A stretch of 64,000 nucleotides of DNA from Escherichia coli (GTDB lineage Bacteria; Pseudomonadota; Gammaproteobacteria; Enterobacterales; Enterobacteriaceae), in the NCBI RefSeq assembly GCF_044324785.1, contig NZ_CP172127.1; one strand, given 5' to 3'. The notes under the pieces were generated by a model, which saw only the letters and a program-made list of their open reading frames with translations, searched no databases and was not told the DNA's origin. Of the stretch, positions 16,637-60,306 are shown one piece after another. The translations under genes and the position numbers were made by a program. Each line of letters starts with the position of its first letter. Within the stretch, counting starts at the first letter, position 1.

Positions 16637-17047
16637 CTAATGAAAAAAACGCGTATGCCTTTGCCAGACAAGCGTTATCGCTATTGCTGCAAGAATCCCA
16701 AAGAAGCCGATAAAATAGTAATAGAGTGTTAATGCACCTGTAACAGCGCAACGAACCGGACTCCACAATTCTTCGCTATGGCATTTTCCTGCCAGTTCAA
16801 GGAGCTTATTTCGTCCATGCGAGATAATGCCTGACCATAAAACAATCATTAAGCAACTTATTACCCAAATGGGCCGTTCACTCATTAATGCGGCATTCAC
16901 GATGATCACCAGGGCCAACCCTGTCAACGTCATCATAATGATAAAACGGTGAGAACCAGGATCAACATTAAATAATAAACCGGCCAGCATACTGATTAAA
17001 AACATCGCGCCCGCAGTGCTGAACACAAGGATAATGGCAGATACAGG
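16637..17047 (-). pseudogene. ybhM: ybhM C-terminal fragment (BAX inhibitor-1 family), separated from its 5' half by an IS insertion
   Basis: ORF 16637..17086 encodes the C-terminal portion of a BI-1-like membrane protein; its first ~11 codons read out of the IS end. Confidence 0.7.
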
Positions 17048-17089
17048 AAGTGACTGCTCCCCGTCCTGTCGGGCGAGGCTTCCCACTTC

Positions 17090-18259
17090 TTAAGCCGCAA
17101 CCGTCTGTGTGACGGATTTATGCTGGCCTCCATGGGCAGAAACGACGAGTCCCGCCGCTTGTAATTCCAGTATGCCCTTGCGTTTGATGTTGAGCGCCGC
17201 GTTGATATCGCGGTCATGTTCAACTCCACACTCTGGACACTGCCAGATGCGCTTACGTAATGGCATCTCCGACATTTTGTGACCGCAGCAGTGGCAGGTT
17301 TTCGAACTGGCGAACCATTGATCCAGTTTCACCAGATGCACACCTTTCTCTGCTGCTTTATATTCCAGTTTTGTGATGAATCCAGACCATCCAGCATCGC
17401 CTATCGCACGAGCCAGATGGTGATTTTTCATCATATTTGCCGTTTTCAATTTCTCGACAATTACCGCTTGGTTTTCGTCAACAATTGCGCGAGATAACTT
17501 GTGCTGGAAATCGGCACGGGCACTGGCTACCCGTTCGTGAACGGCTGCAAGTTGTATTCTGGCTTTGCGCCTGTTTGCGCTCCCTTTTTTCTTACGGGAC
17601 AGTGCTTTCTGCTTCCGGCGCAGGTTGCGACTTGCATTGATTAGGTGGCGGGGACTGGCAATTTTATTGCCGTCCGATTTGATGACAAAATGCGCCAGCC
17701 CCATATCCAGCCCTGTCACATTTGATATCAGTGCGGGCTTTGCCGGCGCTTCCATCCCGTCGTCACAGAGTAACGACGCGTAGTATTTCCCGGTTGCGCT
17801 GCGGCTCAACGTGATACTTTTCAGCATTCCCGTAATTTCACGATGTAAACGCGCTTCAATCGGCAAGATTTTCGGTATTTTTATCGCACCATCAAGGACT
17901 TTTATGCCAACACAATGATAGCTCGATTGTCTGCCGTGTTTACTTTTAAAGGTAGGTTTACCTGCTTTCAGTTTCGGATTGAAAAAGTTAGAAAAAGCCA
18001 CGTCGAGGTTAATTACCGCCTGCTGCAACGCAATAGAATCATATTCTTTAAGCCATCCATACCGGCGGGATTTCTTCGCCACTGCAAGCAGTGGTTTGAG
18101 GTCTTTACGCGGGTTTAAATTTACGCGGTGCCGCTGGTAAGAATGTTTCTTGATATGCAGAGCTTTGTTGTACGCAAAACGCACTGCACCGAACTGGGCG
18201 TTGATAAATTCAGCCTGTTCTGGTGTCGGGTAGATGCGTACTTTTGTTGCTCTTAACAT
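17090..18259 (-). CDS. tnpB: TnpB (IS605 OrfB family; RuvC-like RNA-guided endonuclease)
   Basis: 389-aa ORF with RuvC-I (GLDMGL), RuvC-II (VIVEKL), a CxxC...CxxC zinc finger (CHCCGH ... CPECG) and RuvC-III (HDRDINAALNI). Confidence 0.9.
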   Translation of the reverse strand: MLRATKVRIYPTPEQAEFINAQFGAVRFAYNKALHIKKHSYQRHRVNLNPRKDLKPLLAVAKKSRRYGWLKEYDSIALQQAVINLDVAFSNFFNPKLKAGKPTFKSKHGRQSSYHCVGIKVLDGAIKIPKILPIEARLHREITGMLKSITLSRSATGKYYASLLCDDGMEAPAKPALISNVTGLDMGLAHFVIKSDGNKIASPRHLINASRNLRRKQKALSRKKKGSANRRKARIQLAAVHERVASARADFQHKLSRAIVDENQAVIVEKLKTANMMKNHHLARAIGDAGWSGFITKLEYKAAEKGVHLVKLDQWFASSKTCHCCGHKMSEMPLRKRIWQCPECGVEHDRDINAALNIKRKGILELQAAGLVVSAHGGQHKSVTQTVAA

Positions 18260-18315
18260 AATCAGCGCTCATTGATATAATGCTTTTATTTTAACACTTT
18301 AGGTGAATATATCAA

Positions 18316-18741
18316 TTGAGTAATCATGATGATTTACTGGCGGGATTTCTCCGCAAACGACACAGTGTCAGTAAGCTGGTTGTGCACCTTATTTTTACGA
18401 CAAAGTATCGACGCAAACTATTCGACAGTCAGATGATCGCTCAGTTGCGTGAGGCTTTTGGCTCCGCTGCGGCAAAGCTTGAATGCGAAATTATTGAGAT
18501 GGACGGGGAGCCAGACCATGTACACCTGCTGGTGGCCTACCCGCCAAAACTGGCGGTCAGTGTGATGGTCAATAATTTAAAATCGGTATCATCACGTTTG
18601 CTACGCCAGCAGAACGCGCATTTACGTATGCAGAGTAAAACGGGGCTTTTGTGGTCGAGATCGTACTTTGTCTGTAGCACCGGAGGGGCAACGATTGAAA
18701 CGCTCAGAGCCTACGTTCAGAGTCAGTCAACACCTGATTGA
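18316..18741 (+). CDS. tnpA: IS200/IS605-family Y1 transposase TnpA
   Basis: 141-aa ORF with an HUH motif (HVHLLV) and a catalytic-Tyr region (SRSYFVCSTGG); divergent from tnpB. Confidence 0.9.
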   Translation: MSNHDDLLAGFLRKRHSVSKLVVHLIFTTKYRRKLFDSQMIAQLREAFGSAAAKLECEIIEMDGEPDHVHLLVAYPPKLAVSVMVNNLKSVSSRLLRQQNAHLRMQSKTGLLWSRSYFVCSTGGATIETLRAYVQSQSTPD

Positions 18742-18813
18742 TCTTTAAAGCCCTGCGGGCTTTTCGCCTTATATCCCCGCCCGCATTGGGCGAGGGTTTA
18801 CGGCGTTTTTCGC

Positions 18814-19113
18814 TAAACTTGCAACGACAATCGCCACCAAAGAGAGTAAAAACAGATATATTACGCCTGCGATGGCGGCATTTATCTTGTTGATATCCTT
18901 ACTTAAGCCATACATACAAAGTAATAATAACCCTATGGCGACATACATTGGTGGTGAATCATATTTGGTTGCCGTAATTTCGAGATACTTAGCTCCCCAG
19001 GCCAGTCCTGCGGTTGCCACCAAACCTAAAGCGGTAATGAGCCATATACCGTTTAATATCCTGGCCTCGTGCTGAAAATCTAATTTATTGCTGTTTTGCG
19101 AGTATGATTCCAT
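18814..19113 (-). pseudogene. ybhM: ybhM N-terminal fragment (BAX inhibitor-1 family), truncated by the IS insertion
   Basis: ORF 18769..19140; BI-1-like N-terminus from MESYSQNSNK to ...VVASL, then 14 IS-derived codons and a stop. Confidence 0.7.
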
Positions 19114-19274
19114 TCTTTTAGTTGTCCTTAGAAAAAACATTAATATTTACCATCAATAAATTTAAAGCCACGCATACAAAATACTTTTTTATTTATGGAT
19201 ACGGAAAACGCTTCCGCTCGCTCATAAGGCATATTTTATACCTGGTACTTGTTAAGTGTCGTTTTTTCGTAAGA

Positions 19275-19300
19275 AAAAATCCCGACACATGGCCGGGATA
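19275..19300 (-). terminator. Rho-independent terminator downstream of ybhL
   Basis: Minus strand reads atcccggccatgtgtcgggatttttt. Confidence 0.5.
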
Positions 19301-19318
19301 TTGATGGTGAAAAAAGAA

Positions 19319-20023
19319 TTAACGGCGGTTGCCGAAGATCCGCAGCAACATCAGGAACAGGTTGATGAAGTCCAGATACAAGGTTAACGCGCCAAGAATG
19401 GAATATTTGCGCAGGTTCGACGTGTCGCGGGTATCAATCTGCTCACCCATATTTTTCAGTTTCTGCGTGTCATACGCCGTCAATCCGACAAAGACAATCA
19501 CGCCGATGTAGGTGACTGCCCACATCAATGCTTCGCTTTTCAGCCAGAAGTTGACCAACGATGCCAGCACAATGCCGATTAACGCCATAAACAGCATATT
19601 GCCAAAGCCGCTTAGATCGCGCTTCGTGGTGTAACCGTACAGGCTCATTGCGCCAAACATCCCGGCAGTAACGACGAAAGTACTGGCGATAGAAGCAGCG
19701 GTATAGACAATGAAAATACTGGAAAGCGTAAGACCCGTCAGCGCCGAATAAAGCATAAAGAGCATCGTCGTCACACCTGCGCTCAGCTTTTGAATCATCG
19801 CTGATAACACAATAACCAATGCTAATTGCGCGATGATCAGACCGATTAAAAAGACACGGTTAGTGAACAACAGCTCCATCACGGCCGCGGAATTAGCCGC
19901 ATACCAGGCAACAAATGCGGTCAGCAACAAGCCAACGGTCATCCAGCCATAGACTTGCGCCATATAAGTTTGCAAGCCAGCCCGGGGTTGTACAATTGAA
20001 TCAGAACGTGGGAATCTGTCCAT
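19319..20023 (-). CDS. ybhL: BAX inhibitor-1 family inner membrane protein YbhL
   Basis: ORF 19319..20104; start trimmed to MDRFPRSD (about 234 aa). Confidence 0.85.
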   Translation of the reverse strand: MDRFPRSDSIVQPRAGLQTYMAQVYGWMTVGLLLTAFVAWYAANSAAVMELLFTNRVFLIGLIIAQLALVIVLSAMIQKLSAGVTTMLFMLYSALTGLTLSSIFIVYTAASIASTFVVTAGMFGAMSLYGYTTKRDLSGFGNMLFMALIGIVLASLVNFWLKSEALMWAVTYIGVIVFVGLTAYDTQKLKNMGEQIDTRDTSNLRKYSILGALTLYLDFINLFLMLLRIFGNRR

Positions 20024-20119
20024 GATGATCTCCTGAAGATATAAGGAATATCTTAAGGATACTGCAAAATGATGAGGCTGTGCATCGACGCAGCGTAAAC
20101 GCATGTACTGAGCGGTGAA

Positions 20120-20150
20120 ATTGCCGGACGCAGCGGTGCCTTATCCGGCT
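20120..20150. repeat. REP-like palindromic unit
   Basis: gccggacgcagcggtgccttatccggc resembles the E. coli REP consensus; lies between ybhL and moaE. Confidence 0.4.
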
Positions 20151-20159
20151 AACAAAAAA

Positions 20160-20612
20160 CTACCAGCGTTTTGCCGCCTGCTGATCGCTCTCCCGAGCTT
20201 CAACCCAGCGGTCGCCTTCCGGCGTGGCTTCACGCTTCCAGAACGGTGCGCGGGTTTTGAGATAATCCATAATAAACTGCCCGGCTTCAAACGCACTGCT
20301 GCGATGCGCACTGGTGACACCGACAAAAACGATTTCATCTCCCGGCCATAATTCCCCGATGCGGTGAATCACCGTGACGCGCCCCAGCGGCCAGCGGTTA
20401 CGCGCTTCATCGACAATTTCTGCCAGTGCTTTTTCAGTCATCCCCGGATAGTGTTCGAGGGTTAATGCTTTGACGCTGTCGCCAAGGTTATGGTTGCGCA
20501 CCTTACCGGTAAAGGTGACTACCGCACCGTCTTCATCACGCTCCGCCAGCCACGGATACTCTTCTCCTACGCTGAATGGCTGCGGGCCGACAACAATTTT
20601 GGTTTCTGCCAT
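20160..20612 (-). CDS. moaE: Molybdopterin synthase catalytic subunit MoaE
   Basis: 150-aa ORF, last gene of moaABCDE. Confidence 0.95.
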   Translation of the reverse strand: MAETKIVVGPQPFSVGEEYPWLAERDEDGAVVTFTGKVRNHNLGDSVKALTLEHYPGMTEKALAEIVDEARNRWPLGRVTVIHRIGELWPGDEIVFVGVTSAHRSSAFEAGQFIMDYLKTRAPFWKREATPEGDRWVEARESDQQAAKRW

Positions 20613-20613
20613 C

Positions 20614-20859
20614 TTAACCTCCGGTTACCGGCGGGAAGAAAGCCACTTCGTCGCCGTCAGTCAGCGGATGGTCAAAACTCACCAGCGTCTGGTTGACGGC
20701 AGCCAGCAATTTGCCATCTTCCAGCGCCAGCGCCCAGCGATCGCTCTGCGCAGCCAGATGTTGGCGTAACGCTTCAACGGTTGGGAAATCCGCAGCCACT
20801 TCGGTTGCATCTGTTCCCACCAACTCGCGCACCTGGGCGAAAAAAAGAACTTTAATCAT
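20614..20859 (-). CDS. moaD: Molybdopterin synthase sulfur-carrier subunit MoaD
   Basis: ORF 20614..20922 trimmed to MIKVLFFAQ... (81 aa) ending in the conserved GG. Confidence 0.9.
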
Positions 20860-21337
20860 CCGCTTCCACCTTAAAGTCACCCGACTTGCCGCCGCTCTTT
20901 GCCAGCAAACGTACCGGACCAATCACCATATCTTTTTGCACCGCTTTGCACATGTCATAAATGGTCAGCGCCGCCACGGAGGCCGCGGTTAATGCTTCCA
21001 TTTCGACACCGGTTTTCCCGGTCAGGCGGCATAAGGTTTCTATACGTACCCGATTGTGCTCCGGCTCGGCCTGTAAATTGACTTCAACTTTGCTGAGCAT
21101 CAGCGGGTGACAGAGCGGGATCAGATCCCAGGTGCGTTTTGCCGCCTGAATACCGGCAATACGCGCAGTGGCAAATACGTCGCCTTTGTGGTGGCGACCA
21201 TCAATAATCATCGCCAGCGTCTCGCTGCGCATGGTGACAAAGGCTTCGGCGCGCGCTTCACGCACGGTTTCCGCTTTGGCGGAGACATCCACCATGTGCG
21301 CTTCGCCAGCGGCGTTGATATGGGTCAGTTGCGACAT
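20852..21337 (-). CDS. moaC: Cyclic pyranopterin monophosphate synthase MoaC
   Basis: 161-aa ORF; synteny. Confidence 0.95.
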
Positions 21338-21339
21338 AC

Positions 21340-21852
21340 TTATTTCTTCAAATGTGGATGGAAATTACACGGACGCGTACGGGCATCCAGCTGCGGCGCG
21401 ATGATATTTTCCCATGCGGTACGGCACGCTTTGGTCGAACCCGGCATGGCGAAAATCAGCGTTTTGTTAGCGACGCCCGCTACCGCACGAGATTGCAACG
21501 TGGAAGTGCCAATCTCTTCAAACGACAACATACGGAACACTTCACCAAAACCTTCAACTTCACGGTCGAACAACGGCAGCAATGCTTCGGGAGCCTGATC
21601 ACCTTCCGTCAGGCCAGTCCCCCCCGTAATCAACACCACTTGTACATCGTCGCTGGCGATCCACGCAGATACCTGAGCGCGAATAGCGTAGCGGTTTTCT
21701 TTCACAATGGCTTTATCGACAACGTGATGGCCCGCTTCTTGCGCCGAATCGCGCAGATAGTGACCGGAGGTATCGTCTTCTTCACCGCGACGATTAGAAA
21801 CCGTAAGAATAGCAATACGGGTCGGGATAAATTCAGTGCTTACCTGACTCAT
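21340..21852 (-). CDS. moaB: Molybdenum cofactor biosynthesis protein MoaB
   Basis: 170-aa ORF; synteny. Confidence 0.95.
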
Positions 21853-21873
21853 CTGATCTCTCCTTTTGACGTT

Positions 21874-22863
21874 TTAGCCGCCAATGTACGATAAGTTTTG
21901 CGTAATACCGGTGTTGTTTTGATGCAGGAAATGGGTCTGTTTCTTCTCCCGCAGCGCCGCTGAAATACGCGCTTCCAGCGCCTGTTGCTGGGTATCGTCT
22001 TCCAGCAGATCGCGCAGGTTAACGCCGCCTTCACCAAACAGGCAGAGATGGAGTTTACCAGTGGAGGAAACGCGCAGGCGGTTGCAAGTGGCGCAGAAGT
22101 CTTTTTCATACGGCATGATAAGGCCAATCTCTCCGGCGTAATCCGGATGACAAAAGACTTGCGCGGGACCGTCGCTGCGTTGACGTAATTGGTGGATCCA
22201 GCCGCGACGCAGTAGCTCGTCACGCAGAACCTGACCAGAGATGTGATGCTTACGGAAGAGCTCGCTGCCCTCGCCCGTTTCCATCAATTCGATGAAACGC
22301 AGCTGGATAGGGCGATGCTGGATCCAGTTCAGAAAGGTGTCGAGCTGATGATGATTAACATCACGCATCAGCACGGTATTGACTTTGACCTTCTCAAAAC
22401 CGGCCTCAAATGCAGCATCGATCCCTGCCATGACCTGGTTGAATTTATCCTGCCCGGTAATGGCATGAAACTGGCGAGCGTCAAGGCTATCAACGCTGAC
22501 GTTGATGCCAGTAAGTCCCGCATCGCGCCAGTTCGCCACATCGCGTTCCAGACGGTAACCATTGGTGGTGACCGCAATCTGGCGGATAGCGTCGTTTTCC
22601 CGCACAGCGACGATGATATCGGTAAAGTCGCGGCGTAAAGACGGCTCACCGCCTGTCAGGCGCACTTTTTCGGTGCCCAGACTGGCAAAGGCGCGCGTAA
22701 CCCGGCGAATTTCATCGACGGTAAGAAAGCCTTTATTGGTGACGCCGCTCGGTTTGTAGCCATCCGGCAGGCAGTAGGTGCAACGAAAGTTACACACATC
22801 AGTAATCGACAGGCGCAAGTAGTAAAACTTACGCGCAAATGCATCAGTCAGTTGTGAAGCCAT
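21874..22863 (-). CDS. moaA: GTP 3',8-cyclase MoaA (radical SAM)
   Basis: ORF 21874..22944 trimmed to MASQLTDAF... (329 aa); CxxxCxxC motif (CNFRCTYC). Confidence 0.95.
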
Positions 22864-22865
22864 GT

Positions 22866-23000
22866 ACACCTTTCCAGATACGGGAGGCGAAGTCATTTCT
22901 TCCTTCGCCCTGGTGGCAATCTTTACGAGCATTGTCACGGCCAAAGCACCGTATCAGTTGACCCAGGTGCAGAGGCTAGAGTGTTTAGTGGTTAAGCCGA
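22866..23000 (-). ncRNA. Moco (molybdenum cofactor) riboswitch candidate in the moaA 5' leader
   Basis: Position immediately upstream of moaA; leader contains GCCUCCC and GGAAAGG elements next to the start codon. The fold was not checked. Confidence 0.45.
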
Positions 23001-23199
23001 TACTAGCGTGTAAATGAGATTTTTACCATCCACACTTTCGCTATGTAATCATGTATATAGCGTCATGATCGTGCTATTTCGCTACAGAATAAGGGAAAAT
23101 GGCGGTTTTACTTTGATATACATCATCAGGAAGGCATAGCGTACATCGTCCTTTAGAGGTAGAAGAAAATAGTTTGTATCCTCAATATTGGCAGGTTAA

Positions 23200-24168
<969 letters not shown>

Positions 24169-24205
24169 CACGAAGCCGGAAGAATATTCCGGCTTCGTCA
24201 TCTTG

Positions 24206-26227
24206 TCACGACGCGGCAATAAACAACTCACGCAGCTGATGCAACTGGTCACGAATTTGCGCCGCTTCTTCGAACTCCAGATTTTGCGCGTGTTGCATCA
24301 TCAGCCCTTCCAGTTCATGGATTTTCTGCTGCAACGCTTTCGGCGACATATCCATCGGCACATTATCCGGCTCAACAATCGGTCGCGCTTTTCCTCTGCC
24401 CTTCGCTTTGGTTTTGGCAATGTTCTGCCCCAGCGCCAGGATATCGACCACTTTCTTGTTCAAGCCCTGCGGCGTAATACCGTGTTCCTCGTTGTACTTC
24501 TGCTGTTTCTCGCGGCGACGTTCGGTTTCGCCAATCGCTTTCGCCATTGACGGGGTGATCTTATCGCCGTAGAGAATCGCTTTACCGTTAACGTTACGCG
24601 CCGCACGACCAATAGTCTGGATCAACGAACGTTCAGAACGCAGGAAGCCTTCTTTGTCGGCGTCGAGGATCGCCACCAGCGAAACCTCCGGCATATCCAG
24701 ACCTTCGCGCAGTAAGTTGATCCCCACCAGCACGTCGAACTCGCCCAGACGCAAGTCGCGGATAATCTCCATACGTTCGACGGTGTCGATATCTGAGTGA
24801 AGATAACGCACGCGCTCGCCGTGTTCTTCGAGATATTCCGTGAGATCTTCCGCCATTCGCTTGGTCAGTGTGGTGACCAGCACGCGTTCGTTAATTGCCG
24901 CTCGCTGACGAATCTCCGATAGAAGATCATCGACCTGTGTCGCCACTGGCCGCACTTCGATAATCGGATCAAGCAATCCGGTTGGACGCACCACCTGATC
25001 CACCACATCGCCGCCGGATTTTTCCAGCTCGTAATTACCCGGCGTCGCCGAAACATAGATGGTTTGCGGCGCTAATGCTTCGAACTCTTCAAATTTCAGC
25101 GGACGGTTATCCAGCGCTGATGGCAGGCGGAAGCCATACTCCACCAGCGTCTCTTTACGCGCCCGGTCACCGCGATACATGCCGCCAATTTGCGGAATGG
25201 TAACGTGAGATTCATCGACCACCAGCAGCCCATCGGCAGGCAGGTAATCAAACAGCGTCGGCGGTGGCTCACCCGGTCCACGACCGGAGAGGAAGCGCGA
25301 GTAGTTCTCAATCCCGGAACAGTAGCCCAGCTCGTTCATCATCTCCAGATCAAACTGGGTACGCTGGGTCAGCCGCTGCTCTTCAAGCAACTTGTTGTTC
25401 TCCAACAGCACTTTGCGTCTGGCGGCCAGTTCTTCTTTGATCTCTTCCATCGCCTGTACGATGCGCTCGCGCGGCGTGACGTAGTGCGTTTTCGGGTAGA
25501 TGGTAAAACGTGGAATAGTGGAAACAATCTGCCCGGTGAGCGGGTCAAATAACGACAATCGTTCCACTTCCTCGTCAAACAGCTCCACGCGAAGTGCAAT
25601 GTCATCCGATTCTGCCGGGAAGATATCAATCACCTCACCACGAACGCGGAAAGTACCACGCTGGAATGCCTGATCATTACGAGCGTATTGCAGCTCCGCC
25701 AGTCGGCGCAGGATCGCGCGCTGATCGATAATCATGCCGACCGTGAGATGGAGCATCATCTTGAGATATAAATCAGGATCGCCCAGACCATAAATCGCGG
25801 AAACAGACGCCACCACAACCACATCACGCCGCTCCAGCATCGCTTTGGTAGCGGACAAACGCATCTGCTCAATATGTTCGTTTACCGAGGCATCTTTCTC
25901 AATGAAGGTGTCGGAACTCGGTACATAGGCTTCCGGCTGATAGTAGTCGTAGTAGGAGACGAAATACTCCACCGCGTTTTCCGGGAAGAACTCTTTCATT
26001 TCGCCATACAGCTGGGCCGCCAGCGTTTTGTTGGGCGCAAGTACCATGGTAGGGCGCTGAAGGTCAGCAATGACATTGGCAATGGTGAAGGTTTTCCCGG
26101 AGCCAGTCACGCCAAGTAACGTCTGGTGCGCCAGGCCATCTTCCAGCCCCTCTTCGAGACGTCGAATCGCCTCTGGCTGATCGCCAGAAGGTTTAAAAGC
26201 GGAATTCAGTTTGAACGGTTTACTCAT
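24206..26227 (-). CDS. uvrB: Excinuclease ABC subunit B
   Basis: 673-aa ORF with Walker A (GVTGSGKT) and a DESH box. Confidence 0.95.
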
Positions 26228-36273: not shown

Positions 36274-37702
36274 GCATGTTCCAGCCGATCAGCATATTCC
36301 ACCACCACACTCCGAGGGTGATATGCACCAGGAAGGTTAATATCGTCAGTACCGCACCGACCAACCACCAGGATTTAATATCGTTGTAACCCACGCCAAA
36401 GATGACCGGACCTGCCGCGCCGCCATAGTGAGTAACCATGCCGCCATAGGAGTTGGAGAACAACAGTGCCAGCGCGGTTAACATTAACGGTGCGCCGGAG
36501 ACGTTCGCCAGCATGGCAAATACCGGTAACATGGCAACGATATAGGCACTACCGGAAGCGAAGAAATAACGCACGATAATGCTGAGGAAAATAATAACGA
36601 AGAAAGCAACGTTACCGTGACCATCAAATGCCAGGTTATTTTTAAAGACTTCAGCTAACCATTCGAAGAATTTCACTTTCGATAATAAGGAGCTTAAGCC
36701 GATAATACCGCCGTACCAGATTAAGGTATTCCAGCCGCCTTTATTTTTAACCACGTCTTCCCAGGTAACGATACCCAGCAGCAGCATAGTCGCCATAACA
36801 ACGATTGCCACGGTGGATTCATCAACCCCCAGTGACTTACTGAAAATCCAGCCCAGTAGCGCCAGCACAAAGACACCGAGCAGCATTTTTTCGCGGATTT
36901 TCATCGGTCCCAGTTCGGCAAGGCCCGCTTTGGCGATGGTTTTGTTATCCACCTTCTTAATTTCTGGCGGATACATGGTGTAAATCACCAGCGGGGTGAC
37001 CAGCAGCATAATGATACCCGGCAATCCAGCGGCCAGCGCCCATCCACCCCAGCTAATTTGCAGGTGCAGAATGTCGTTGATCATTTTCAGCGCCAGAATG
37101 TTCCCCGCCATTGCGGTAAAGAACATATAGCTGGTGGTTTTGGTGACCATGTAAATGGACATCATCAGGTAATGTCCGACACGACGCGGACTTTTTTCCG
37201 GTTCGGACCCCAAAGCCACCGCCACACTGTTGATGATCGGTAACACAATGCCGCCCGCACGCGCGGTGTTAGACGGTGTTGCCGGAGCCAGTACCAGATC
37301 GAGGAATACCGTAACGTAACCCAGACCCAGCGTGGTGTTACCGATTTTACCAATCAGCAGATAGGCTATACGTTTGCCTAAGCCGGTGGTCACAAATGCG
37401 GCGCTTAAGGTGAACGCCGAGAACACCAGCCAGGTGGTACCTGAAGAGTAACCGCTTAATACGGCGGTGGTCTTAAACGCACCGTCGGATAAGTTACCGA
37501 CCACCACCATTGAGGCAGCAACGGCAATTAACAGTACGACAGGTTCCGGGAAAGGCTTGATAACCAGCCCCACAATGGCCGCCAGGTAAATACCAAAAAG
37601 CACCCACGCCAGTTCGCTTAATCCTGCCGGAGCTGGCATAAAGCCAATAATACATGGGATCGCTAATATCAGAATTAGCTTCCATAACGATTTTTTATTC
37701 AT
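36269..37702 (-). CDS. ybhI: YbhI, DASS-family anion transporter
   Basis: 477-aa polytopic ORF; synteny. Confidence 0.9.
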   Translation of the reverse strand: MNKKSLWKLILILAIPCIIGFMPAPAGLSELAWVLFGIYLAAIVGLVIKPFPEPVVLLIAVAASMVVVGNLSDGAFKTTAVLSGYSSGTTWLVFSAFTLSAAFVTTGLGKRIAYLLIGKIGNTTLGLGYVTVFLDLVLAPATPSNTARAGGIVLPIINSVAVALGSEPEKSPRRVGHYLMMSIYMVTKTTSYMFFTAMAGNILALKMINDILHLQISWGGWALAAGLPGIIMLLVTPLVIYTMYPPEIKKVDNKTIAKAGLAELGPMKIREKMLLGVFVLALLGWIFSKSLGVDESTVAIVVMATMLLLGIVTWEDVVKNKGGWNTLIWYGGIIGLSSLLSKVKFFEWLAEVFKNNLAFDGHGNVAFFVIIFLSIIVRYFFASGSAYIVAMLPVFAMLANVSGAPLMLTALALLFSNSYGGMVTHYGGAAGPVIFGVGYNDIKSWWLVGAVLTILTFLVHITLGVWWWNMLIGWNML

Positions 37703-57737: not shown

Positions 57738-57862
57738 TGGTGGGTCGTGCAGGATGACTCGCTTCGCTCGCCCTTCGGGCCGTCGCCGCGAGCGGCTCCG
57801 TTGTTTCGCTGCGCTCAACTCAAACCTGCTGCAGGTTCGAATCTTTGAGTATCGCAGATAGC
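57738..57862 (-). repeat. Degenerate tRNA-Lys-derived unit: 17-nt copy of the tRNA-Lys 3' end, then diverged sequence
   Basis: tggtgggtcgtgcagga is identical to the 3' end of the adjacent tRNA-Lys genes; the rest is no longer tRNA-like but keeps a T-arm-like ctgcaggttcgaatc. Confidence 0.6.
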
Positions 57863-57893
57863 AAAAAAGCGCCTTTAGGGCGCTTTTTTACAT
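57863..57893 (-). terminator. Rho-independent terminator of the lysT tRNA operon
   Basis: Hairpin gcgcctttagggcgc flanked by A/T runs, immediately 3' of the last tRNA. Confidence 0.65.
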
Positions 57894-57969
57894 TGGTGGG
57901 TCGTGCAGGATTCGAACCTGCGACCAATTGATTAAAAGTCAACTGCTCTACCAACTGAGCTAACGACCC
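57894..57969 (-). tRNA. lysQ: tRNA-Lys (UUU)
   Basis: 76-nt reverse complement matches E. coli tRNA-Lys with anticodon loop cuUUUaa and CCA end. Symbol assigned by position in the cluster. Confidence 0.93.
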
Positions 57970-58002
57970 CTTGCGGGATTATGCTGCTTTAATCATTCAG
58001 GA

Positions 58003-58078
58003 TGGTGGGTCGTGCAGGATTCGAACCTGCGACCAATTGATTAAAAGTCAACTGCTCTACCAACTGAGCTAACGACCC
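58003..58078 (-). tRNA. lysZ: tRNA-Lys (UUU)
   Basis: Identical 76-nt tRNA-Lys sequence. Confidence 0.93.
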
Positions 58079-58126
58079 ATACGGGTGTTACCTGAAAGAT
58101 TTCTACTCGGAACCAATCTTTAAAAT

Positions 58127-58224
58127 TGGTGGGTCGTGCAGGATGACTCGCTTCGCTCGCCCTACGGGCCGTTGCTGACGCAACGTTATCCTTCACGCTT
58201 AACATCTGAGTTTGATGTTAAAAT
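58127..58224 (-). repeat. Spacer unit with a 17-nt tRNA-Lys 3'-end stub and a conserved hairpin
   Basis: tggtgggtcgtgcagga followed by tgactcgcttcgctcgccctacgggccgttgctgacgcaacg... Confidence 0.6.
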
Positions 58225-58300
58225 TGGTGGGTCGTGCAGGATTCGAACCTGCGACCAATTGATTAAAAGTCAACTGCTCTACCAACTGAGCTAACGACCC
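58225..58300 (-). tRNA. lysY: tRNA-Lys (UUU)
   Basis: Identical 76-nt tRNA-Lys sequence. Confidence 0.93.
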
Positions 58301-58303
58301 GAG

Positions 58304-58379
58304 TGGTGGGTGATGACGGGATCGAACCGCCGACCCCCTCCTTGTAAGGGAGGTGCTCTCCCAGCTGAGCTAATCACCC
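58304..58379 (-). tRNA. valZ: tRNA-Val (UAC)
   Basis: Reverse complement is gggtgattagctcagctgggagagcacctcccttacaaggagggggtcggcggttcgatcccgtcatcacccacca. Confidence 0.93.
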
Positions 58380-58430
58380 GATACTGCGCTGGATACTACA
58401 AACTACTTCCACCGAACCCACCGTAATTAG

Positions 58431-58506
58431 TGGTGGGTCGTGCAGGATTCGAACCTGCGACCAATTGATTAAAAGTCAACTGCTCTACCAACTGAGCTAA
58501 CGACCC
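58431..58506 (-). tRNA. lysW: tRNA-Lys (UUU)
   Basis: Identical 76-nt tRNA-Lys sequence. Confidence 0.93.
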
Positions 58507-58508
58507 GG

Positions 58509-58584
58509 TGGTGGGTGATGACGGGATCGAACCGCCGACCCCCTCCTTGTAAGGGAGGTGCTCTCCCAGCTGAGCTAATCACCC
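58509..58584 (-). tRNA. valT: tRNA-Val (UAC)
   Basis: Identical 76-nt tRNA-Val sequence. Confidence 0.93.
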
Positions 58585-58619
58585 GATACTACGCTGGATA
58601 CTACAACTAACTATGTTAG

Positions 58620-58719
58620 TGGTGGGTCGTGCAGGATGACTCGACTTCGTCTCGCCCTTCGGGCCGTTGCTGATGCAACGTTATCCTTCACGTTTTACTA
58701 CCGCTTCCACCTTAGCGAT
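58620..58719 (-). repeat. Spacer unit with a 17-nt tRNA-Lys 3'-end stub and a conserved hairpin
   Basis: tggtgggtcgtgcagga followed by tgactcgacttcgtctcgcccttcgggccgttgctgatgcaacg...; closely similar to the unit at 58127..58224. Confidence 0.6.
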
Positions 58720-58795
58720 TGGTGGGTCGTGCAGGATTCGAACCTGCGACCAATTGATTAAAAGTCAACTGCTCTACCAACTGAGCTAACGACCC
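58720..58795 (-). tRNA. lysT: tRNA-Lys (UUU)
   Basis: Identical 76-nt tRNA-Lys sequence; first gene of the operon. Confidence 0.93.
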
Positions 58796-58959: not shown

Positions 58960-59751
58960 TTACATCGCGTTCAGACGTTTTTGCGCCTGTTTAGCGCCAT
59001 CAGTACCAGGATATTTACTGATAACCTGCTGGTATACGGCTTTCGCTTTTGCGGTGTCACCTTTGTCCTGCATGATGACGCCGACTTTAAACATCGCATC
59101 TGCAGCCTTTGGTGACTTCGGATAGTTTTTCACTACCGAAGCAAAATAGTACGCCGCATCATCTTTTTTACCCTTGTTGTAGTTTAACTGACCCAGCCAA
59201 TAATTGGCGTTTGGCAGGTAAGTTGAATCAGGGTAATTTTTGATGAAATTCTGAAATGCCACCATTGCGTCATCCTGGCGGGATTTATCCTGCACCAGCG
59301 CAATAGCTGCATTGTAATCCGTGTTTGCATCACCGCTTTTCACCGGCGCGCCAGCATTCGCAGTACCAGCATCAGCTGTCGGCGTCGTTGATGCCGCCGC
59401 ACCGCTTTGATCACCGCTGGTTGATTGCGCCGCTGCACCACCGCTGCTGAGGCTGTCGATCTGCAACAGGATCTGCTTTTGCCGCTCCACGACCTGATTC
59501 AGTTGATACTGATTTTCCTGAATCTGACCGCGCAGGGAATCAATATCGGATTGATTATCAGAGAGTTGTTGCTGGAGTTGGGTTAAAAGCTGGCTGTGAG
59601 CATTTGAAATACGCTCAAGTTGAGTGACGCGGTCTTCGACCGAGCCTGAGCCGACACTACTGATTGGTGCCTGAGCAAAAGCGGCCCAGGGGGCCGCTAT
59701 ACCAACCAGTAACGACAGACTCAATAGTTGATGTCTGAAGTTACTGCTCAT
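58960..59751 (-). CDS. cpoB: Cell division coordinator CpoB (YbgF), TPR-repeat periplasmic protein
   Basis: 263-aa ORF with signal peptide, coiled coil and TPR repeats, downstream of pal. Confidence 0.93.
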   Translation of the reverse strand: MSSNFRHQLLSLSLLVGIAAPWAAFAQAPISSVGSGSVEDRVTQLERISNAHSQLLTQLQQQLSDNQSDIDSLRGQIQENQYQLNQVVERQKQILLQIDSLSSGGAAAQSTSGDQSGAAASTTPTADAGTANAGAPVKSGDANTDYNAAIALVQDKSRQDDAMVAFQNFIKNYPDSTYLPNANYWLGQLNYNKGKKDDAAYYFASVVKNYPKSPKAADAMFKVGVIMQDKGDTAKAKAVYQQVISKYPGTDGAKQAQKRLNAM

Positions 59752-59760
59752 GCAATTCTC

Positions 59761-60306
<546 letters not shown>

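Follow-up and report, generated by a model that had tools for sequence, protein, structure and literature searches.

The window analyzed here is a 64,000-nucleotide (nt) stretch of Escherichia coli DNA (contig NZ_CP172127.1, assembly GCF_044324785.1), and the region of interest lies in the clsB-ybhN-ybhM-ybhL-moa region of Escherichia. In the window, ybhM is split into two fragments by an insertion sequence (IS) of the IS200/IS605 family, which RefSeq names ISEc46 in near-identical copies (99.2–99.7% identity). On the minus strand, the order of its parts is left end (LE), tnpA in reverse orientation, tnpB, and right end (RE). An earlier note had proposed that the 3′ end of tnpB and the RE yield an omega RNA that guides the TnpB nuclease to uninterrupted ybhM alleles. 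The results described below make it highly probable that the window holds the omega RNA locus, i.e., the locus of a right-end guide RNA, of a complete ISEc46 inserted in ybhM. The features are listed in Table 1.

Table 1. Features of ISEc46 and its insertion site in the window. Numbers in brackets give RNA positions, counted from -1 at 17050.
Feature	Position	Strand	Remarks
ybhM 3′ fragment	16637..17049	minus	alignment to intact ybhM of E. coli ET245
ISEc46 (IS200/IS605 family)	17050..18812	minus	1763 bp; minus is the active "top" strand; RefSeq annotation of near-identical copies
ybhM 5′ fragment	18813..19140	minus	alignment to intact ybhM of E. coli ET245
TTAG (plus: CTAA)	18813..18816	minus	directly 5′ of LE; TnpA target motif and predicted transposon-adjacent motif (TAM) of TnpB
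LE with subterminal imperfect hairpin	18770..18812	minus	arms 18775-18782 / 18788-18795, loop 18783-18787
tnpA, Y1/HUH transposase	18316..18741	plus	141 amino acids; TTG start; NCBIfam NF033573
tnpA promoter-like site, divergent	18253..18281	plus	consensus scan only
Predicted sigma-70-like promoter of tnpB and omega RNA precursor	18288..18315	minus	TTGATA-16-TAAAAT with upstream TG; consensus scan only
tnpB, RNA-guided endonuclease	18259..17090	minus	389 amino acids; NF040570; stop codon 17092..17090
Predicted omega RNA scaffold core	17160..17050	minus	~111 nt
Stem 1	17160-17153 with 17147-17140	minus	(-111..-104 / -98..-91); encloses 5-nt loop GGACU, 17152-17148
Stem 2	17136-17132 with 17086-17082	minus	(-87..-83 / -37..-33)
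Stem 3a	17128-17122 with 17098-17093	minus	(-79..-73 / -49..-44)
Stem 3b	17115-17111 with 17105-17101	minus	(-66..-62 / -56..-52)
Stem 4, identical with RE hairpin	17078-17071 with 17066-17059	minus	(-29..-22 / -17..-10)
Pseudoknot	predicted; stem 1 loop with 17055-17052	minus	GACU (-102..-99) with AGUC (-6..-3)
Private G to A change (sense strand; T on plus)	17064	minus	(-15); C·A mismatch in stem 4 / RE hairpin
Predicted guide	17049..~17030	minus	5′-TTCCTGTATCTGCCAT(TATC)-3′ from ybhM 3′ fragment; 16 nt, or 20 nt with TATC

The ends of the element were set by aligning the occupied site with the uninterrupted ybhM of strain ET245 and with ISEc46 insertions at five further independent sites (ybhL-moaE, yebE-ptrB, an IclR gene, oppD, and a major facilitator superfamily/integrase locus). 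The six E. coli sites and the empty ybhM agree that 17050 is the last base of the element and that the flank starts at 17049. The earlier note had therefore placed the tnpB stop codon and the RE correctly; its guide start "below about 17048" was right about the minus strand and the ybhM 3′ fragment, but has to be moved to 17049. In the host minus strand, ISEc46 stands between ...GCAAGTTTAG and TTCCTGTATCTGCC..., and the element itself begins with CGAAAAACGCC (18812) and finishes with ...GGGGAGCAGTCAC (17050). The boundary is also marked by about 60 relatives; all gathered relatives are conserved up to ...AGTCAC and unrelated from the next base on. A comparison of empty and occupied ybhM revealed no target duplication. 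The TTAG motif, which is part of the uninterrupted ybhM sequence, precedes the LE in all six independent sites, with flanks differing among the six, and about 30 loci in relatives belonging to other genera have it at this place, too. Three short contigs of draft genomes start exactly at TTAG plus LE, and two, including one of these three, stop exactly at ...AGTCAC; these repeat-collapsed assemblies are independent marks of the element ends and of the constant TTAG.

ISEc46 is mobile: among 5426 E. coli genomes, 605 carry it, at 651 places in total. The ybhM insertion was found in none of the 5426 complete E. coli genomes. The element has the characteristics of the IS605 type, namely a Y1 HUH TnpA, subterminal hairpins on one strand, ends that lack terminal inverted repeats, insertion without duplication, and multiple sites. 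The GC skew of the plus strand is negative in seven of eight blocks, so that the minus strand is G-rich and thus the lagging-strand template, i.e., the strand on which the IS200/IS605 family acts. In E. coli AST215, an ISEc46 copy in the same orientation lies in the 55-bp ybhL-moaE spacer (window 20105..20159), about 1.3 kb from the ybhM site and next to a sequence resembling repetitive extragenic palindromes; the two are independent insertions in one neighbourhood. The chromosomal flank 19200..26000 has a best identity of 98.9% among 5424 complete E. coli genomes, so that the window stems from a lineage absent from this collection.

Both proteins of the element were compared with their families. 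TnpA matches the IS200 transposase equivalog NF033573 over the full profile with 141 bits (cut-off 55) and shows no difference from the nine-copy consensus, and thus the tnpA gene of the window appears to be intact. RefSeq annotates near-identical copies as ISEc46 tnpA. In a survey (PMC9956272) the Y1 transposase of ISEc46 was described as N-terminally truncated. We did not adopt this view because the protein that starts at the TTG codon spans positions 3–125 of the 126-position IS200 profile; the reported truncation is probably an artefact of start codon calling. The tnpB gene is divergent from tnpA. Its product aligns with the TnpB of ISDra2 (PDB 8exa, 8h1j) over residues 4–380 (E = 6e-75), and the RuvC residues D185, E269, and D351 correspond to D191, E278, and D361 of ISDra2. 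A CxxC...CxxC zinc ribbon is present (C322, C325, C341, C344), and the RuvC triad as well as the zinc-ribbon cysteines are invariant in an alignment of 16 proteins of the family. The mutated catalytic residues that the earlier note had envisaged as an argument against its proposal were thus not found.

The structure of the predicted RNA was analyzed by comparison of relatives. These were E. coli chromosomal and plasmid copies as well as 80 loci, taken from one genome per species, with TnpB identities of 62–99% at the amino acid level; the genera include Photorhabdus, Xenorhabdus, Serratia, Rahnella, Vibrio, Shewanella, and Aliidiomarina. The structure alignment contained 68 distinct 3′ ends of 140 nt. 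Unguided folding of this alignment with RNAalifold yielded five helices (stems 1, 2, 3a, 3b, and 4) with compensatory changes in 16 of the 31 pairs. The same helices were obtained when the published ISDra2 architecture (PMC10097598) was mapped onto ISEc46, and in this mapped structure 15 pairs are altered on both sides among the 68 sequences. Standard pairs occur in 97.7% of 2304 cells, compared with 36–54% when the partners were slid by 1–3 columns. The covariation score was 0.281 versus 0.118 ± 0.005 in shuffled alignments, none of 500 of which reached 0.281. Stem 3b, for example, exists in the variants CCGTC/GACGG, CTTGT/ACAAG, CTGGC/GCCAG, CGAGT/ACTCG, and CTCGA/TCGAG, and stem 2 in the variants CCCAT/GTGGG, CCAAT/GTTGG, and CTTAT/ATAAG. 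Stems 1 to 3 fall within codons of the C-terminal tail of TnpB, and stem 2 joins coding with non-coding sequence 50 nt apart; therefore, neither the coding of TnpB nor the binding of a hairpin by TnpA explains the pattern. The two strands of the pseudoknot are complementary in 96.6% of the cells, and the pseudoknot can be regarded as supported by homology rather than proven. Taken together, the comparative results support the prediction of a conserved structured RNA that spans the 3′ end of tnpB and the RE and stops exactly at the transposon boundary. The proposed origin of the RNA is thus supported by a covarying structure homologous to that of ISDra2; the structured core of about 111 nt is shorter than the proposed length of about 150 to 250 nt. 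In nine marine relatives, stem 4 is extended by a hairpin insertion of 14–18 nt (GTGGCGC TTTA GCGC..). Six marine gammaproteobacterial loci, some of them among these nine, have an LE only about 100 nt upstream of tnpB; they are LE-tnpB-RE elements without tnpA, non-autonomous and IS1341-like.

A covariance model, R1, was built from 61 relatives after all near-identical copies of ISEc46 had been excluded. It matches the window at 17189..17050 on the minus strand with 147.5 bits (E = 3e-39) and a Deinococcus ISDra2-like element with 35 bits (E = 8e-8); each is a full-length match whose end coincides exactly with the RE boundary. No convincing second copy was found with R1 in the window; the sole other match is at chance level (E = 9.5). 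The exact ISDra2 DNA was not found in the plasmid collection, which contained only relatives with 80–82% identity, and the element of Deinococcus aquaticus, with a TnpB 82% identical to that of ISDra2, was used as a proxy. Its numbering reproduces the nucleotides of the cryo-electron microscopy structure, i.e., -116G, -106G, -105G, -103A, -102U, -85G, -84C, -81A, -80U, -36G, -35U, -32G, and -31A, the -10U of the stop codon, and the tetraloop at -20..-17. A first mapping of ISDra2 stem 1 (-116..-111 / -91..-86) onto GGAA/UUUC of ISEc46 was abandoned, as the covariation backs the hairpin that flanks the pseudoknot loop.

Stem 4 is at the same time the RE hairpin of the transposon. At 17059..17078, ccccgtcctgtcgggcgagg forms an 8-bp hairpin with the arms 17059-17066 and 17071-17078 and a 4-nt loop (17067-17070). 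The earlier note had recognized a sequence capable of forming a stem-loop at this place, and this is true for the family more clearly than for the window. The hairpin of the consensus of all other copies has a z-score of -3.5 (0 of 200 shuffles fold as well), whereas the window copy alone is within chance (RNA z = -1.4; 19 of 200 shuffles) because of its private change at 17064. The remark that gggcgagg also occurs at the LE was correct: GGGCGAGG recurs there at 18788..18795 and pairs with CCCCGCCC at 18775..18782. The DNA fold of the LE hairpin has -8.8 kcal/mol (z = -2.5), and this hairpin is conserved across the family. On the minus strand, the arms (CCTCGCCC / GGGCGGGG) are shared by the two hairpins, including a conserved T·G pair. 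On this strand, TTAG and the LE hairpin are separated by 16 nt, and 9 nt follow the RE hairpin before the element ends; the distances resemble their counterparts in IS608, which are 19 and 10 nt.

The only exact copy of the predicted guide in the window is the RE flank of ISEc46 itself, and it is preceded by GTCAC and not by TTAG. In uninterrupted ybhM, TTTAG is directly followed by TTCCTGTAT..., so that TTAG abuts the guide sequence, and the predicted target of TnpB is TTAG + TTCCTGTATCTGCCATTATC. A 64-nt empty site that was rebuilt from the flanks in the window is present in ybhM of E. coli GF60 with 64 of 64 identical positions (100%), and about 2900 further genomes have it with at least one mismatch. 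The ybhM allele of ET245 has an A instead of a C at guide position 10, and many E. coli ybhM alleles have a mismatch there. The predicted programming for uninterrupted ybhM would thus have an exact target in an allele such as that of GF60, and the mismatch at position 10 in many alleles is a refinement of this prediction. A second match of the guide with three mismatches, at window position 36513, is at chance level. A terminator-like hairpin with a T-run is located at 17028..17005 on the minus strand, 22–45 nt past the RE end and inside the ybhM fragment. It could set the primary 3′ end of an omega RNA precursor; this candidate was set aside, as sites of this kind are no more frequent in the region than expected by chance.

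Three plasmid loci of E. coli carry tnpB-only relatives (78–80% nucleotide identity) with LE and RE but without tnpA, and their neighbours are ardA/antirestriction, psiA, and hicA genes. The motif 5′ of their LE is TCAG and not TTAG, and the LE segment just 5′ of the hairpin is changed along with it (CCGAGAACC against CCGTAAACC), as if the target motif co-varied with the DNA guide of TnpA. TnpB is intact in two of the three loci and frameshifted in the third, and the respective protein clusters have 566 and 357 members.

The following mechanism can be proposed. Transcription would start at the tnpB promoter and proceed through tnpB and the RE into ybhM, as expected from work with ISDra2 and Geobacillus elements. 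Read-through from ybhM, which is co-oriented with tnpB, might be a second source of the transcript. TnpB would bind the structured last ~111 nt, including stems 1 to 4 and the pseudoknot, and would keep the next ~16–20 nt of ybhM as the guide. The guide sequence is next to TTAG solely in uninterrupted ybhM, and thus the target would be the scarless donor joint left by excision through TnpA, or an empty ybhM allele. At the occupied site, TTAG is replaced by GTCAC, and this site would therefore be immune. Meers et al. (10.1101/2023.03.14.532601) showed that an arrangement of this kind leads to renewed cutting of the donor joint, upon which the element is restored by recombination with the sister chromosome. 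Homing into other empty alleles, which the earlier note had put forward, would be a fair corollary of this re-cutting; it is compatible with the published work, but the published role is mainly the re-cutting of donor joints.

Several observations weigh against the proposed omega RNA and its function. Within the family, no pair of the pseudoknot is changed on both sides, and the second pair is a U·U in 7 of the 68 sequences. The minimum free energy (MFE) structure of the single sequence 17290..17030 is unremarkable (z = -0.92), and its pairings are partly different. However, the ISDra2 omega RNA also folds differently from its thermodynamic prediction (PMC10097598), and therefore the single-sequence MFE is uninformative. 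An Rfam search of the window, both at the gathering thresholds and at E ≤ 10, yielded only chance-level matches (HgcC, GNAS-AS1). Thus, of the covariance-model search that had been suggested, the part with known families remained negative, and the locus was recovered with the model built here. An Rfam search at E ≤ 10 of the ISDra2-like locus was equally without a match, and therefore the Rfam result is uninformative and was dropped as evidence against an omega RNA. The TnpB-associated RNA models RF03065 and RF02998, which are intended for RNAs at tnpB 3′ ends (named in 10.1101/2023.03.14.532601), match neither the window nor the ISDra2-like locus at E ≤ 10 and cover other TnpB clades; Rfam contains no model for the ISEc46/ISDra2-like RNA class. 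The role of TTAG as the TAM of ISEc46 TnpB is inferred from insertion sites. The TnpB of IS608, HpyTnpB, was inactive in interference assays (10.1101/2023.03.14.532601). The searched literature contained no data on expression, processing, or cleavage for ISEc46, nor data on an IS609 omega RNA. Lastly, private changes in the window copy, i.e., the C·A mismatch at 17064 and T270K, may impair excision or cleavage.

These private changes lead to the question whether the omega RNA architecture is real in the family, but the window copy is a crippled relic that neither excises nor cuts, so that homing would fail here. The window copy differs from the nine-copy consensus at 7 of 1767 positions, and four of the differences are private among the nine copies compared. 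None of the 508 E. coli places and none of the 67 other aligned sequences has the change at 17064, which weakens a hairpin that TnpA needs and that also forms stem 4: the predicted stability drops from -17.3 to -10.1 kcal/mol for RNA and from -8.4 to -4.7 kcal/mol for DNA, i.e., by about 40%, and the DNA MFE structure changes its register. T270K adjoins the catalytic E269 at a position where the alignment of 16 proteins shows a threonine conservation of at least 90%. The remaining two private changes are H335R in the zinc-ribbon loop of TnpB and a synonymous C to T change at 17360 within tnpB. Nevertheless, both open reading frames have full length, the number of differences is similar to that of other copies, five G-C/G-U pairs of stem 4 remain, and the score of the covariance model stays very high. 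In addition, the residue after the catalytic glutamate is a histidine in the active TnpB of ISDra2, and thus this position is not fixed across TnpBs. We regard a crippled window copy as rather unlikely. It is conceivable, although quite improbable, that the mismatch at 17064 blocks excision by TnpA while TnpB and the omega RNA still work, which would result in a fixed chromosomal RNA-guided nuclease. If so, this nuclease would cut intact ybhM of its own lineage that enters by conjugation, transduction, or recombination, and the window copy would be an allele-exclusion or drive device rather than a transposon insurance.

The conservation could also be explained without a functional RNA, by the coding of the TnpB C-terminus together with the single-stranded DNA hairpin and the cleavage site recognized by TnpA. 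Stem 4 and the last 4–5 nt do double as recognition elements of TnpA, much of the scaffold is coding, and the core of the pseudoknot is invariant and does not covary. However, the compensatory double changes in stems 1, 2, 3a, and 3b (13 pairs) are all outside the TnpA hairpin, and stem 2 bridges coding and non-coding sequence. The structure coincides with that of an omega RNA solved by experiment, and a structure-aware model recognizes it across phyla; the counterpart of the overlapped C-terminal tail of TnpB is disordered and dispensable in ISDra2 (PMC10097598). Taken together, an explanation without RNA is very improbable. That TnpB and its RNA act as a nuclease-dead RNA-guided repressor would have a precedent in domesticated TnpB relatives of the TldR-like kind (PMC10705468), but it is hardly credible for ISEc46: TnpB has full length with an intact RuvC triad and zinc finger, and tnpB is part of a complete mobile element, with TnpA and both ends, that occupies many independent insertion sites. 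The omega RNA of a complete ISEc46 thus remains the preferred interpretation.

Systems of TnpB and omega RNA are already well understood; the ISEc46 locus does not change any concept, and the mechanism is not new. What is added is a comparatively supported omega RNA model, comprising scaffold, TTAG as predicted TAM, and an explicit guide, for an insertion sequence that is native to E. coli and widespread in Enterobacterales. The proposed roles of TnpB in the retention and homing of IS605-type elements thereby become testable in E. coli at a natural site, with the empty allele being available in GF60. Furthermore, the covariance model detects an RNA class that is currently missed by Rfam. Elsewhere in the window, the Rfam search revealed RNA features that are standard for E. 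coli, namely a Moco riboswitch upstream of moaA (22851..22995), the CpoB/ybgF thermometer (59722..59860), and a cluster of seven tRNA genes with RtT repeats (57738..58795), all on the minus strand.

The closest well-characterized system is ISDra2 of D. radiodurans (PDB 8exa, 8h1j; PMC10097598). ISEc46 and ISDra2 share the catalytic and zinc-finger residues of TnpB, and in both cases the RNA overlaps the 3′ end of tnpB and the RE and stops at the transposon boundary. In both, a stem 1 hairpin has a 5-nt loop that forms the pseudoknot, a predicted one in ISEc46, with nucleotides -6..-3, stem 2 closes the hairpin of stems 3a and 3b, and stem 4 is the 8-bp RE hairpin with a tetraloop around -20. 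The order and the spacing of these elements are the same in the ISEc46 and the ISDra2-like RNA, with an offset of 1–3 nt, and both RNAs contain the motifs GCYCAUGGAG and GAAGUGRGAA. Non-canonical pairs are also common to both, i.e., G·A beside stem 2 and beside the pseudoknot, and G·U closing stem 2. In one pair of the pseudoknot a compensatory difference exists, with A:U in the Deinococcus RNA and C:G in ISEc46. There are further differences. The TAM is TTGAT in ISDra2 and, as predicted from insertion sites, TTAG in ISEc46, and the RE terminates with GTTCAA and GTCAC, respectively. In ISDra2, tnpB has its stop codon at -10; in ISEc46 the stop is at -43..-41, and 40 nt of non-coding sequence are left, and stem 1 is followed by a 6-nt triple-helix strand in ISDra2 but by a linker of 2–3 nt in ISEc46. 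In ISEc46, unlike in ISDra2, tnpA is divergent from tnpB, and the activity of ISEc46 is predicted here from its sequence.

Similarities extend to two further systems. The TnpB and IscB proteins of the ISGst elements of Geobacillus stearothermophilus (10.1101/2023.03.14.532601) resemble the ISEc46 system in that TnpA and TnpB have the TAM at the LE side in common, the guide is the RE flank, and the donor joint consists of TAM plus target, while the motif at the RE end is unlike the TAM, so that the occupied site is immune. The ISGst TAMs are TTTAT and TTCAT, the protein and RNA sequences are different, and the function has been shown experimentally, whereas for ISEc46 it is predicted from sequence data. 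IS605 and IS608 of Helicobacter pylori belong to the same family as ISEc46, and IS605 also has divergent tnpA and tnpB genes. As in ISEc46, the H. pylori elements have subterminal imperfect hairpins, use the lagging-strand template, and insert 3′ of a 4-nt motif without duplication; this motif is TTAC in H. pylori and TTAG in ISEc46.

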